The notes below the pieces were generated by a model, which was not told the origin of the DNA, made no database searches, and saw only the letters and a program-made list of their open reading frames with translations. Below are positions 18,384 through 22,525 of a stretch of DNA of 64,000 bases, piece after piece. The DNA is from Escherichia coli. Lineage in GTDB: Bacteria; Pseudomonadota; Gammaproteobacteria; Enterobacterales; Enterobacteriaceae. The DNA lies in the NCBI RefSeq assembly GCF_029227855.1, contig NZ_CP074356.1. One strand, 5' to 3'. Within the stretch, counting starts at the first letter, position 1, and every line of letters begins with the position of its first letter. The position numbers were made by a program, and so were the translations under genes.

Positions 18384-19118
18384 ATGTCCAAACTCGATCT
18401 AAACGCCCTGAACGAACTGCCGAAGGTAGATCGCATTCTGGCGCTGGCAGAAACTAACGCCGAACTGGAAAAACTGGACGCTGAAGGCCGCGTTGCCTGG
18501 GCGCTGGATAATCTGCCCGGTGAATATGTACTTTCTTCCAGTTTCGGCATTCAGGCGGCGGTGAGCCTGCATCTGGTGAATCAGATTCGCCCGGATATTC
18601 CAGTGATCCTCACCGATACGGGTTACTTGTTCCCGGAAACCTACCGCTTTATTGACGAGTTAACGGACAAACTCAAGCTCAACCTGAAAGTGTACCGCGC
18701 TACCGAAAGCGCCGCCTGGCAGGAAGCACGTTACGGAAAACTGTGGGAGCAGGGTGTTGAAGGCATTGAAAAGTACAATGACATCAACAAAGTCGAACCG
18801 ATGAACCGGGCGCTGAAAGAACTGAATGCGCAAACCTGGTTTGCTGGCCTGCGCCGTGAACAATCCGGCAGCCGCACCAATTTACCGGTGCTGGCAATTC
18901 AGCGTGGCGTATTTAAAGTGCTGCCGATTATCGACTGGGATAACCGAACTATTTATCAGTACCTGCAAAAACATGGCCTGAAATATCACCCATTATGGGA
19001 TGAAGGATATTTATCGGTCGGTGATACCCATACAACCCGTAAATGGGAACCCGGCATGGCGGAAGAAGAAACGCGTTTCTTTGGCTTAAAAAGAGAATGT
19101 GGGTTACACGAAGGGTAA
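18384..19118 (+). CDS. cysH: Phosphoadenosine phosphosulfate (PAPS) reductase
   Basis: Track ORF 18231-19118; start at [20 protein letters not shown]... (244 aa); C-terminal ECGLH motif. Confidence 0.9.
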
Positions 19119-19136
19119 ATATTGCCGGATAAATTA

Positions 19137-19174
19137 AACGCCTCTGTCAGAAATGATGGGGGCGTTTTTATTTT
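19137..19174 (+). terminator. Rho-independent terminator after cysH
   Basis: Inverted repeat AACGCC...GGCGTT (19137-19142 / 19161-19166) followed by TTTATTTT. Confidence 0.5.
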
Positions 19175-19279
19175 GCGAGCAGCATTCCTGATTTTAAACG
19201 TGAACGCCGCTGGAAGAATTATCAGGTATAGAATGGCGTTGGGTGCTTGAGGCTGTCTGGCGTTAAGCATTCGCGAGGT

Positions 19280-19343
19280 TCCAGATGGACAAAAGCCCCA
19301 GGCGATATTTCTATCAACCTGAGGCCAGCGTTCGAACCTAAGC
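19280..19343 (-). ncRNA. Candidate Sok-type antisense RNA (sokX-like) opposite the hokX leader
   Basis: Minus-strand promoter-like elements TTGCCT (complement of 19374-19379), 17-bp spacer, TAACAT (complement of 19351-19356) overlapping the hokX SD/ATG, as in hok/sok loci; a weak hairpin plus U-run near 19280. Extent is approximate. Confidence 0.3.
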
Positions 19344-19382
19344 AATTCGAATGTTAGTCTCTTCTTTGCAGGGAGGCAAGAC

Positions 19383-19535
19383 ATGCTGACAAAATATGCC
19401 CTTGTGGCAATCATCGTACTGTGTTGTACAGTACTGGGATTCACGCTGATGGTAGGCGACTCGTTGTGTGAGTTGAGTATCAGAGAACGTGGTATGGAGT
19501 TTAAGGCAGTTCTCGCTTACGAATCGAAGAAGTAG
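19383..19535 (+). CDS. hokX: Hok-family small membrane toxin (type I toxin-antitoxin)
   Basis: 50-codon [53 protein letters not shown] with GGGAGG RBS 6 nt upstream; hydrophobic helix plus conserved Hok/Gef C-terminal pattern; below the ORF-track size cut-off. Confidence 0.75.
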
Positions 19536-19729
19536 CCACCACGCGGGGGTAAAACCCCGCGTATTGAATTGTGATGGTTTGGTCTCCTGCACCCTTTTTT
19601 AATTTATATTGTTTATGTGAATATTATGCCTATGTTTATTATTCATATATATTACGGATGAAAATTATTTGATTATTCATAATGTAAATATTTTATTGAA
19701 CGATATATATCACAGATAATTTTTAATAT

Positions 19730-22360
19730 ATGCGTAAATATCCTTTAAGTTTACTGAAGGATAAAAATATTGTGACTTTTTTTGATTTCTGGGGAAAAAC
19801 CCGACGCGGCGAGAAAGACGGGGGCGACGACTATCACCTTCTTTGCTGGCATTCGCTGGATGTAGCCGCGATGGGCTATTTAATGGTTAAAAGCAATTGC
19901 TTCGGGCTGACTGACTATTTTCGTCAACTAGGTTTCGCTGATACGGAGCAGGCAGCACAATTTTTCGCCTGGCTATTGTGCTGGCACGATACTGGAAAAT
20001 TTGCCCGCTCTTTTCAGCAACTTTACCTGCACCCACAACTCAAGGTTCCGGAAGGCGCAAGAAAGAATTACGAAAAGATCTCTCATTCAACGCTGGGCTA
20101 CTGGCTGTGGCATCATTATTTAAGTGAATACGAAGAATTGCTTCCTTCATCTTCACTCTCTCCGCGCAAACTTAAACGGGTGATGGAGATGTGGATGCCC
20201 ATGACTACCGGGCATCATGGTCGGCCCCCTGACCGTATTGATGAACTGGATAATTTTCTGCCTGAAGACAAAGCTGCCGCACGAGATTTTCTCCTTGAAA
20301 TCAAGGTACTGTTTCCGCTCATCGAGATCCCCGCATTCTGGGATGATGACGAGGGCATTGAACTTTTAAAACAACTTTCCTGGTATATCTCTGCAACCGT
20401 CGTACTCGCAGACTGGACGGGATCGTCAACGCGGTTTTTTCCACGCGTTGCACAGGCAATGGATATTAAAGATTACTGGCAGAAGGCTTTAGTTCAGGCT
20501 CAAAACGCCTTAACCGTCTTTCCTCCAAAAGCACAAACCGCGCCTTTCACCGGAATTAATACGCTGTTTCCTTTTATTGAGCACCCGACACCGTTACAGC
20601 AAAAGGTGCTGGATCTGGATATCAGCCAGCCTGGGCCACAGTTATTTATTCTGGAGGATGTGACTGGCGCAGGTAAAACAGAAGCGGCGCTTATCCTGGC
20701 CCACAGGTTGATGGCTGCGGGGAAAGCACAGGGTTTGTTTTTTGGCCTGCCAACAATGGCAACGGCCAATGCCATGTACGATCGGCTGGTAAAAACCTGG
20801 CTTGCTTTCTATTCGCCAGAATCCCGCCCCAGCCTGGTGCTGGCACACAGTGCCCGCACATTAATGGACCGCTTTAATGAATCACTCTGGTCCGGTGATT
20901 TAGTCGGGTCAGAAGAACCGGATGAACAAGCGTTCAGTCAGGGATGTGCGGCCTGGTTTGCCGACAGTAACAAGAAGGCGTTGCTGGCTGAAATTGGCGT
21001 CGGCACGCTGGATCAGGCGATGATGGCGGTGATGCCGTTTAAACATAATAATCTGCGGCTTCTGGGACTGAGTAACAAAATCCTGCTGGCTGATGAGATC
21101 CATGCCTGTGACGCTTACATGTCGTGCATTCTTGAAGGATTGATTGAGCGGCAGGCGCGTGGAGGAAACAGCGTTATTTTGCTTTCTGCCACGTTATCTC
21201 AACAGCAGCGCGACAAACTCGTTGCTGCCTTTGCGCGTGGTGCAGAGGGCCAGCAAGAAGCTCCGTTCCTGGAAAAGGATGATTACCCCTGGCTGACGCA
21301 CGTTACGAAATCGGATGTGCATTCACACCGGGTAGCAGCGCGCAAAGACGTTGAGCGTAGCGTGAGCGTGGGTTGGCTTCATAGCGAACAAGAGTGTATT
21401 GCGCGTATCGAATCGGCGGTAAGTCAGGGGAAATGCATCGCCTGGATCCGGAATTCTGTCGATGATGCTATTAAAGTTTATCGTCAGTTACTTGCCCGCG
21501 GCGTCATTCCTGCTTCCAGCCTTTCTCTTTTTCATAGCCGCTTTGCTTTTAGCGATCGCCAGCGAATTGAAACGGAAACGCTGGCACGCTTTGGTAAAGA
21601 AGATAGCTCACAGCGTGCCGGAAAAGTCCTCATTTGTACTCAGGTCTTAGAGTCGAGCGTTGATTGCGATATGGACGAAATGATTTCCGACCTTGCCCCC
21701 ATTGATTTGCTGATCCAGCGAGCGGGGCGATTACAGCGACATATCCGCGATATTAATGGTCAGTTAAAGCGTGACGGAAAAGACGAGCGTTCCCCTCCTG
21801 AATTGCTGATTCTGGCCCCCGTCTGGGACGACGCTCCAGGTGACGAATGGTTCGGCAGTGCCATGCGTAACAGTGCATATGTCTATCCCGATCATGGACG
21901 AATCTGGCTGACGCAGCGTGTACTGCGTGAGCAAGGCGCTATTCAAATGCCACACGCAGCCCGCCTTCTTATTGAATCAGTCTACGGTGAGGACGTGGTA
22001 ATGCCGGAAGGATTTGCCCGCAGCGAGCAGGAACAAGTGGGCAAATATTACTGCGATCGCGCAATGGCTAAAAAGTTTGTGCTGAACTTTAGGCCCGGCT
22101 ATGCCGCCAATATCAACGATTACCTCCCGGAAAAACTGTCGACACGTCTGGCTGAGGAGTCTGTTTCCCTGTGGCTGGCTACCTGTATTGCCGGTGTGGT
22201 GAAGCCTTATGCCAACGGTGCTCACGCATGGGAAATGAGCGTTGTCAGAGTGCGTCGAAGCTGGTGGAAAAACATCGGGATGAGTTTTCTTTACTGGAAG
22301 GGGAAGCGTTCAGGCAGTGGTGCATTGAACAGCGGAAAGATCCGGAGATGGCAAACGTGA
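19730..22360 (+). CDS. cas3: Cas3 HD-nuclease/helicase (type I-E); 3' end apparently frameshifted, with the conserved C-terminus continuing in the +1 frame to 22428
   Basis: 876-aa ORF with HD region (LLCWHSLDVAAMGYL...), DExH helicase motifs (GAGKTEAAL, LLADEIHACD). The last ~36 codons are low-complexity and basic, while ORF 22171-22428 in another frame encodes a tail resembling the K-12 Cas3 C-terminus. An in-frame GTG at 19772 is an alternative start. Confidence 0.85.
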   Translation: MRKYPLSLLKDKNIVTFFDFWGKTRRGEKDGGDDYHLLCWHSLDVAAMGYLMVKSNCFGLTDYFRQLGFADTEQAAQFFAWLLCWHDTGKFARSFQQLYLHPQLKVPEGARKNYEKISHSTLGYWLWHHYLSEYEELLPSSSLSPRKLKRVMEMWMPMTTGHHGRPPDRIDELDNFLPEDKAAARDFLLEIKVLFPLIEIPAFWDDDEGIELLKQLSWYISATVVLADWTGSSTRFFPRVAQAMDIKDYWQKALVQAQNALTVFPPKAQTAPFTGINTLFPFIEHPTPLQQKVLDLDISQPGPQLFILEDVTGAGKTEAALILAHRLMAAGKAQGLFFGLPTMATANAMYDRLVKTWLAFYSPESRPSLVLAHSARTLMDRFNESLWSGDLVGSEEPDEQAFSQGCAAWFADSNKKALLAEIGVGTLDQAMMAVMPFKHNNLRLLGLSNKILLADEIHACDAYMSCILEGLIERQARGGNSVILLSATLSQQQRDKLVAAFARGAEGQQEAPFLEKDDYPWLTHVTKSDVHSHRVAARKDVERSVSVGWLHSEQECIARIESAVSQGKCIAWIRNSVDDAIKVYRQLLARGVIPASSLSLFHSRFAFSDRQRIETETLARFGKEDSSQRAGKVLICTQVLESSVDCDMDEMISDLAPIDLLIQRAGRLQRHIRDINGQLKRDGKDERSPPELLILAPVWDDAPGDEWFGSAMRNSAYVYPDHGRIWLTQRVLREQGAIQMPHAARLLIESVYGEDVVMPEGFARSEQEQVGKYYCDRAMAKKFVLNFRPGYAANINDYLPEKLSTRLAEESVSLWLATCIAGVVKPYANGAHAWEMSVVRVRRSWWKNIGMSFLYWKGKRSGSGALNSGKIRRWQT

Positions 22361-22525
22361 TTTTAGTTACCGATGACGAAAGTTGCGGGTATTCGGCTAT
22401 GGAAGGATTGACTGGCAAGGTTGGTTGAGATGCCTGCGACAGGGCTCTCTGAATAGTTGATACACCGAAAAGGATGGAATGATGGACAACCGACCTGGGA
22501 TGGTCTTTTTTACGAGAGGATGCGT

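Follow-up and report, generated by a model that had tools for sequence, protein, structure and literature searches.

For the hok/sok module of plasmid R1, the elements described on the mRNA are tac, fbi and ucb, the metastable/tac stem and a last stem-loop that protects the trimmed message (PMC9841398). The R1 model treats the start codon of mok as essential, and the hokX/hokE branch, to which the locus described here belongs, lacks one. A chromosomal pair of E. coli appears in the literature under the names hok/sokX or hokX (PMC12736100; PMC7232551). At this locus, the annotation of K-12 MG1655 includes the curated ncRNA sokX (b4701), and SokX RNA was detected in K-12 under all tested conditions (bioRxiv 10.1101/2024.06.20.599902). 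In O157:H7 EDL933, the Rfam 'sok' region at this place, which is the hok-sense leader, gave RNA-seq as well as ribosome-profiling reads (PMC5331693).

Here, we analyze the copy carried by a 64,000-nt stretch of E. coli DNA (contig NZ_CP074356.1; hereafter the window), to which all coordinates refer; features lie on the plus strand unless the minus strand is given. The spacer between cysH and cas3 comprises the whole of 19119..19729, with the cysH stop codon at 19118 and the cas3 ATG at 19730. Most probably, it holds an uninterrupted copy of chromosomal E. coli hokX/sokX, a type I toxin-antitoxin module of the hok/sok family whose mechanism would resemble that of R1. The locus is already known and not novel: RefSeq annotates it, the literature has a name for it, and both Pfam and Rfam cover it. 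All testable features of the family are present except the canonical mok start.

A Hok/Gef gene in the cysH-cas3 spacer

The first-pass annotation of this DNA, made from the letters alone, had placed a Hok-family toxin gene between cysH and cas3, and the Pfam HOK_GEF match, the Rfam match of the leader and the RefSeq annotation all bear this out. The hok coding sequence (19383..19535) specifies 50 amino acids and is preceded, as had been claimed, by a strong ribosome-binding site, GGGAGG (19371..19376), located 6 nt upstream of the ATG. Alignment of the peptide with the Hok family holds in a proper search: Pfam PF01848 is matched over its full model by residues 5-46 (6.3e-10). Peptides of this family have a length of about 50 aa, a hydrophobic helix at the N terminus and a conserved L-C-E motif, found here as L28-C29-E30. 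At this position, RefSeq records WP_000956458.1 ('Hok/Gef family protein'), which is identical to the window peptide and recurs across lineages with either cas3 or iap as the downstream neighbor. The first part of the spacer is present in 5,425 of 5,426 complete E. coli genomes. The direct value of the assignment is small; it confirms that a 50-codon toxin gene lying under the usual ORF-size thresholds can be recognized without tools.

Within the family, the peptide is closest to K-12 HokE (39/50 identical residues, 78%), followed by HokA (24/50) and R1 Hok (21/52). The nearest NCBIfam placements, HokA and the general Hok subfamily, both stay below the curated cut-offs, with 53 versus 89 bits for the HokA equivalog (NF007290) and 39.5 versus 73 bits for the Hok subfamily (NF007279). 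Since the HokA cut-off is not reached, the peptide is not a HokA orthologue; by its residues, it is best placed on a separate branch closest to HokE. The sub-cut-off NCBIfam matches, together with the shortness of the frame (50 codons), would also suit a chance open frame with a spurious resemblance to Hok, a notion that is already refuted by the Pfam (6.3e-10) and Rfam (2.4e-26) matches, the 78% identity to K-12 HokE, the coding-type substitution pattern and the RefSeq annotation.

The substitution pattern was read from 13 cysH-linked orthologues, in which 4, 1 and 13 variable sites fall on the first, second and third codon position, respectively, and residue 15 is the only one that varies to any extent. 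The ORF of O157:H7 differs from that of the window by five nucleotides, all of them synonymous; across O157:H7, E. whittamii and Escherichia sp. MOD1-EC7003, 3-5 nucleotide differences leave the amino-acid sequence without a single change. This pattern indicates that the Hok peptide is under purifying selection, which argues for its translation at some time.

Residues Tyr46-Glu47 are encoded by UAC GAA (19518-23), while Cys29 is encoded directly. The tetranucleotide UACG thus formed (19518..19521) is a candidate site of A-to-I editing by TadA, which would change Tyr to Cys. In a survey of the family, Tyr at the aligned position was nearly always followed by GAA, making UACG, and in HokB, the TadA-edited UACG yields the Cys needed for a disulfide with Cys29 (bioRxiv 10.1101/2025.08.07.668861). 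Local folding predicts no tRNA-like hairpin around the UACG of the window, so that editing at this site is suggested by the family-wide pattern only.

Putative promoter and transcript of hok

Rfam RF01794 ('sok') matches 19241..19398 on the plus strand over its full model (positions 1-157) with 111.7 bits against a gathering threshold of 59 (E 2.4e-26). Being on the plus strand, this match represents the leader of hok rather than Sok. The conserved GGGUGCUUGAGG (19241) is the probable start of the hok mRNA, deduced rather than mapped. Together with the end of homology downstream and a fold that closes the ends, this Rfam start suggests a full-length mRNA of about 360 nt (19241..19600); in the predicted minimum-energy fold of this segment, both ends are closed on each other.

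The putative -10 box of the hok promoter, TAGAAT (19229..19234), is separated by 6 nt from the conserved G-rich 5' end downstream of it. In hokC, hokB, hokE and R1-type hok, the equivalent place is taken by a TAnnAT box, and TAGAAT is constant in all compared E. coli alleles. The -35 region varies, and no good -35 box is found upstream of TAGAAT. Scanning 19050-19800 for promoters and terminators with a threshold of 9 of 12 consensus matches retrieved neither the hok nor the Sok promoter; the sole promoter-like site of the scan lies inside the ORF (19386-19414, plus strand), and its sole terminator is that of cysH. As the scan missed both promoters, their assignment rests on homology. Two further Rfam matches, to ctRNA_p42d and Spot_42, fall below threshold and represent the cysH terminator hairpin.

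Predicted and conserved fold-back elements of the mRNA

To examine pairing, 26 loci of the hokX/hokE branch, sampled from Escherichia, Enterobacter, Citrobacter, Klebsiella and others, were aligned with the window, giving 27 loci in total. The five proposed helices pair in 86-98% of cells, whereas sliding the helix partners by 1-3 columns as a control brings pairing to 25-61% of cells. Compensatory two-sided changes occur in four of the five helices, and the core of the end pairing is invariant or shows one-side changes only.

The end pairing is predicted to join the tac element at the 5' end (19241..19255) to the fbi element at the 3' end (19580-94). Its 6-bp core, GGGUGC (19241-46) with GCACCC (19589-94), is paired in 99.4% across the 27 loci, while a 7-bp extension between 19249-55 and 19580-86 is paired in 81% and contains two pairs changed on both sides; the slid controls reach 33-53%. 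Alternatively, tac is predicted to pair with AAAGCCCC in a 5' hairpin (19241..19299; -23.7 kcal/mol, z -2.29), which corresponds to helix 1 of the Rfam consensus. Of its pairs, 95.8% form in the 27 loci, four having changed on both sides, compared to 25-61% for slid versions. GCCCC, the ucb element, forms a predicted hairpin with GAGGC (19295..19325; -12.1 kcal/mol, z -3.4), 98.3% of whose pairs form in the same loci.

The Sok target hairpin (19321..19361; -17.1 kcal/mol) exposes the loop CCUAAGCAA (19337-45) and is helix 3 of the Rfam consensus, where the loop reads CUaaACAA. A YUNR (U-turn) loop is reportedly required in the Sok target hairpin. The window has the YUNR-type motif CUAA at 19338-41, and the loop that holds it is complementary to the Sok 5' sequence GCUUAGG. 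Across the 27 loci, 85.7% of the pairs of this hairpin form and three are changed on both sides, against 28-56% in the slid controls. Moreover, the hok ribosome-binding site, whose GGAGG is invariant in all 27 loci, is predicted to pair with the likewise invariant CUCUUCUU (19359-67); 92.6% of the pairs of this helix form, so it is conserved, and it shows no covariation.

Downstream of the ORF, a GC hairpin (19541..19562) is predicted with an 8-bp stem of ACGCGGGG and CCCCGCGU (19541-19548 and 19555-19562) around the loop GUAAAA. Its pairs form in 96.3% across the 27 loci, with two changed on both sides. In this position, the hairpin would serve as protector of the processed mRNA, a role described for the equivalent 3' stem-loop of R1 (PMC9841398). 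The tac, fbi and ucb elements, the 5' hairpin and the protective 3' stem-loop, as modeled here, are thus those described for R1. The sequence elements themselves, their conservation and pairing, and the purifying selection on the peptide are direct observations. Of the comparison with hok/sok family elements that the first-pass annotation had proposed, the fold-back pairing stands, while the canonical mok start does not, its position being occupied by TCG.

The antisense RNA sokX and its promoter

The candidate Sok antisense RNA is substantiated by the curated K-12 sokX (b4701), which maps to the opposite strand of the leader and delineates a gene of about 59 nt (19343..19285, minus strand). 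Window and K-12 Sok differ at two positions, both in the 5' tail. In the predicted fold of the RNA (-22.7 kcal/mol, z-score -3.57), this short 5' tail leads into a long hairpin, after which comes UUUU; none of 200 shuffled sequences was as stable.

On the minus strand, -35 and -10 elements had been noted opposite the leader. They are present (19351..19379, minus strand), with TTGCCT as -35 (19379..19374), a 17-nt spacer and TAACAT as -10 (19356..19351), and the region is base-for-base that of K-12 sokX. As a motif, the promoter is weak: it has 8 of 12 consensus matches, was not flagged by the scan and is no better than chance. In the 27 loci, AGGCAA (the -35) is invariant, the -10 keeps TAnnAT and the spacer is free of gaps. 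The promoter is credible only by virtue of this identity with K-12 sokX and the key positions kept in the 27 loci. Judged by these features, the locus has a putative cis-encoded antisense Sok with its own promoter inside the leader, a single-stranded 5' tail and a terminator hairpin.

The mok position and the upstream reading frames

The relic of the mok ribosome-binding site, GAGG (19321-24), is kept in the window. At the canonical start position of mok, aligned to hokB, the window reads TCG (19332..19334). An ATG stands at the aligned position in hokB and Enterobacter sp. ENT03, and R1-type hok, hokC and Enterobacter sp. ENT03 have their ATG 8 nt after GAGG. TCG occurs in every hokX allele examined. 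Searching three frames and aligning to hokB, hokC and R1-type hok revealed no canonical mok, and the frame that is open from 19332-34 to the hok ATG has no start codon.

Two short ORFs in a common frame lie upstream of hok. The first (upstream ORF 1; 18 codons, 19285..19341) is preceded by a GAGG at 19275-78, its ATG forming the last triplet with which Sok can pair. The second (upstream ORF 2; 12 codons, 19351..19389) is without a ribosome-binding site and ends on a TGA that overlaps the hok start (ATGCTGA). The TAA stop of upstream ORF 1 (19339-41) is polymorphic: in the K-12 type, T19339C turns it into CAA and merges both ORFs into one of 34 codons that ends on the hok ATG. This fused ORF is placed to do functionally what mok does, and a working relay may be proposed from its arrangement. 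The exact 31-mer of the window type (TAA) was found in 603 of 5,426 genomes and the K-12-type CAA 31-mer in 3,184 of 5,426; other hokX alleles carry TAG plus a 1-nt deletion. As the sampled related Escherichia species carry stop alleles, the split state is apparently the ancestral one, and the fused ORF must be dispensable.

In one reading, the hokX/hokE branch would be mok-independent, with an upstream-ORF relay gating Hok, T19339C fusing or splitting this relay and strains varying in how far Hok is coupled to Sok. We regard this as unlikely, though worth stating for what would follow from it, namely that E. coli strains differ naturally in the tightness of the coupling between toxin and Sok, and that SokX of the K-12 type could act on the leader transcript of cas3. 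Without a mok start and yet with a peptide under selection, the branch offers a natural test case for mok-independent control. Besides this control without mok, only the K-12 fusion to cas3 might merit an experiment.

Somewhat less doubtful, but still a tentative reading, is a module that is transcribed and translationally silent, having lost its mok-dependent activation and being kept by its RNA elements, the Sok gene or linkage. The change of the mok ATG to TCG in all hokX alleles examined and the polymorphic upstream frames (TAA, TAG or CAA at 19339-41) fit such a module, as does the predicted fold, in which the hok ribosome-binding site and AUG lie inside a local hairpin. However, 13 of the 18 variable sites are third positions and the same protein is retained despite up to five synonymous differences across strains and species, clear purifying selection that is hard to explain if Hok were never translated. 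Similarly, the common independent losses of the locus and the inactivity reported for other chromosomal hok loci in killing assays are to be weighed against the invariant ribosome-binding site GGAGG and the finding that 42 of 45 tested Hok homologues are toxic on expression. We therefore retain the hokX/sokX module with an R1-like mechanism as the preferred reading.

The 3' end of the module and its natural inactivation

The GC hairpin after the ORF, which the first-pass annotation had read near 19548-19566, exists, and its stem is located about 6 nt further upstream, at 19541-19562. It was considered as an intrinsic terminator and rejected: because the T-run does not follow it directly but lies 33 nt further on (19595-19600), the hairpin is not a terminator, and the scan found none here. 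The fbi element and this T-run (19580..19600) are taken as the putative 3' end on account of the end pairing. Before the T-run, no stable local hairpin is predicted (-3.1 kcal/mol, z +0.58, no better than shuffles). Homology with strains that have iap and no cas genes ends at 19601, which marks the end of the hok module.

Of the 5,426 complete E. coli genomes searched, 4,220 have the ORF and 1,206 do not. ORF and uninterrupted 3' UTR occur together in 3,416 of the 5,426, and the remainder is accounted for by the K-12-type replacement or by IS insertion in the hairpin. In the K-12 type, promoter, leader and sokX are retained, and the sequence is replaced from the hok ATG onward. About 800 genomes are interrupted inside the GC hairpin, at the site of IS421, which in other strains is inserted at ~19557; IS186 occupies the same relative position in K-12 hokC and hokE. 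The GC hairpin is a recurrent landing site of IS186/IS421 and marks a recombination boundary of the CRISPR-cas region. The copy in the window has neither an IS element nor a deletion, compared to lesions in about 37% of complete E. coli genomes. The frequency of such lesions in nature is an argument for the locus being dispensable. A copy in Klebsiella pneumoniae, 82.6% identical, adjoins mutS and not cysH, and is for this reason regarded as a paralogue or a transferred copy.

Relation to cas3

The hok module lies, as first described, directly upstream of an AT-rich region proximal to cas3: the spacer before the cas3 ATG (19601..19729, outside the hok module) has a G+C content of 16%. The window Cas3 is about 26% identical to K-12 Cas3, and its gene has lost one nucleotide in an A-run near 22268-22272, so that the last ~50 codons are frameshifted. 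The hokX leader and sokX of K-12, orphaned from the hok ORF, stand directly before cas3. No usable mapped transcription start of cas3 was found in a search of the literature.

As there is no strong terminator hairpin before the T-run, read-through to cas3 is possible. It had been suggested from the proximity of the two that transcription of the module could influence cas3, and in its strongest form this would mean that the module mainly tunes cas3 by read-through, transcriptional interference or Sok-dependent processing. The 129 nt of AT-rich DNA that separate the T-run from the cas3 ATG hold no canonical intrinsic terminator, nor does any other part between hok and cas3; in K-12, moreover, where hok ORF and 3' UTR are replaced, promoter, leader and sokX abut a different cas3. 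Nevertheless, the module also ends at 19600/19601 where its neighbor is a convergent iap and cas3 is absent, so the hok unit is self-contained. The hok promoter is without a -35 box, the cas3 of the window is frameshifted, and hok loci are not enriched near defense systems (12% versus 9.4% expected at random; bioRxiv 10.1101/2025.08.07.668861). Tuning of cas3 as the main role is thus very improbable.

Proposed mechanism

For the hokX/sokX module, transcript ends, processing, RNase III cleavage and toxicity are modeled by analogy with plasmid R1. Following this analogy, a weak constitutive promoter (-10 at 19229-34) would produce the ~360-nt mRNA (19241..19600), which would be kept inert as tac at its 5' end pairs with fbi at its 3' end. 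Slow 3' trimming up to the GC hairpin (19541-62) would remove fbi, upon which the 5' end would refold on itself and make both the Sok target hairpin (19321-61) and the signals for translation accessible. Sok (~59 nt, 19343..19285) may then recognize the CUAA loop by its 5' tail, and the resulting duplex would lead to decay of the mRNA. Once Sok drops, the 50-aa Hok would be made and damage the inner membrane. Upstream coupling, if any, would have to take the form of a two-step relay in which translation of the Sok-covered 18-codon ORF, equipped with its own ribosome-binding site, is followed by that of the 12-codon ORF overlapping the hok ATG. Alternatively, ribosomes may initiate on hok without any upstream frame, using its own strong ribosome-binding site.

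Comparison with known systems

R1 hok/sok (parB) shares with the window the fold class of the peptide and its LCE motif, the tac/fbi pairing, the 5' hairpin, the pairing of ucb with GAGG, a Sok promoter that overlaps the hok ribosome-binding site, and the 3' stem-loop. In contrast, the peptides have 21 of 52 residues in common, R1 mok starts 8 nt after GAGG where the window reads TCG, and the R1 system is plasmid-borne and mediates post-segregational killing. The R1-type sequence further has a separate hairpin followed by a T-run after fbi, of which the locus in the window has none. K-12 hokB/sokB displays the same leader architecture, and the start of mokB aligns exactly with the TCG of the window. 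However, the mok frame of hokB is intact, only 16 of 50 peptide residues are identical, and Tyr29 of HokB is replaced by Cys29 in the window.

The closest paralogue is K-12 hokE/sokE, with 39 of 50 residues and ~79% of the DNA identical. Both loci have the same tac, fbi and GC hairpin, are without a canonical mok start and encode Tyr46-Glu47 with UACG. They differ in that hokE/sokE occupies another chromosomal site (on the ybdK side), is interrupted by IS186 in K-12 and carries a 4-nt insertion before the ATG, which brings the upstream ATGs of hokE in frame with hok. Finally, E. coli hokX/sokX agrees with the window in the identical protein (WP_000956458.1) and, up to the hok ATG, in the leader and Sok promoter found in K-12. 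While K-12 is without the ORF and 3' UTR, the window has both, and its leader represents the minority TAA allele (19339-41) as opposed to the CAA type of K-12.

Antisense Sok RNA and its target on the hok leader

Despite its name, the Rfam family 'sok' (RF01794) matches 19241-19398 (+), where it covers the hok mRNA leader in the sense orientation, beginning at the 5' end of the transcript and reaching the start of hok (19383..19535, +). Sok as curated in K-12 (sokX, b4701; here 19343..19285, -) is on the opposite strand. Annotation based on RF01794 will place 'sok' on the wrong strand and make it about 2.5 times too long.

The 5' tail of Sok and the loop of its target hairpin (19321..19361, +) form a cluster of polymorphism at 19326-19328, 19338-19342, including a T/C exchange at 19339, and 19350. 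With T19339C, the upstream ORF of 18 codons (19285..19341, +) loses its TAA stop and the CUAA motif in the loop loses its U. Among 5,426 complete E. coli genomes, 31-mer counts assign the K-12 type to 3,184 and the window type to 603.

The junction with cas3 in K-12

Comparison of the window with K-12 (L002, L003) reveals identity that runs up to the ATG of hok (19383-19385) and is followed by unrelated sequence, which in K-12 leads to a Cas3 only ~26% identical to that of the window. Because the identity extends to the hok ATG, K-12 retains the hokX promoter, the leader, and sokX, positioned ~90 nt upstream of the cas3 ATG, while neither the hok ORF nor a T-run lies between the sokX region and cas3. 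If the hokX promoter of K-12 produced a leader transcript for cas3, this RNA would be complementary to SokX in antisense orientation; our literature search returned no paper on such an antisense relationship.

In the window, the only site in the region to pass the sigma-70 scan (19386-19414, +; CTGACA and AATCAT with 17 nt between them, 9/12) is located within the hok ORF and directed downstream. Since 2.0 such sites are expected by chance and one was observed, it is probably meaningless. Upstream, the cysH (cysJIH) terminator (19136-19176, +) consists of a 14-bp hairpin with TTATTTT after it, and it explains the sub-threshold Rfam matches to ctRNA_p42d and Spot_42, which were discarded.

Reading frame of cas3 and related loci

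The cas3 gene of the window (19730..22360) carries, within 22260-22280, an A-run (GGTGGAAAAA-CATCGG) that is one nucleotide short, with A5 compared to A6 in Escherichia sp. MOD1-EC7003 and in E. albertii. The ORF encodes 876 aa rather than 899, and the usual Cas3 C-terminus is encoded in the overlapping ORF 22171..22428. The deletion reflects either a true pseudogene or a sequencing error in the homopolymer.

The cysH-hokX arrangement also occurs in records labelled Pseudocitrobacter (L021, Pseudocitrobacter faecalis DSM 27453; L034, P. vendiensis), whose CysH is 97-98% identical to that of the window; L034 further shares the cas3 variant of the window. Recent transfer, contamination, or mislabelling could account for these records. 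Separately, hokE-like or related hok loci form tandem pairs ~500 bp apart in several species, among them Enterobacter sp. JUb54 (L023), E. whittamii (L028), and Klebsiella spallanzanii (L035).

Insertion sequences at the 3' hairpin of hok

The loop and 3' arm (19546-19557) of the GC hairpin, the 3' stem-loop of the hok mRNA (19541..19562, +), constitute a repeated insertion site of IS186/IS421. The locus is split here in ~800 of the 4,220 hok-bearing genomes, with IS421 found in strains MLI106K4 and NT1F25, while one genome (H1), the spacer of which is 100% identical to that of the window, has an IS1 insertion instead. Likewise, hokC and hokE of K-12 carry IS186 at the equivalent position of their GGGG...CCCC hairpins.
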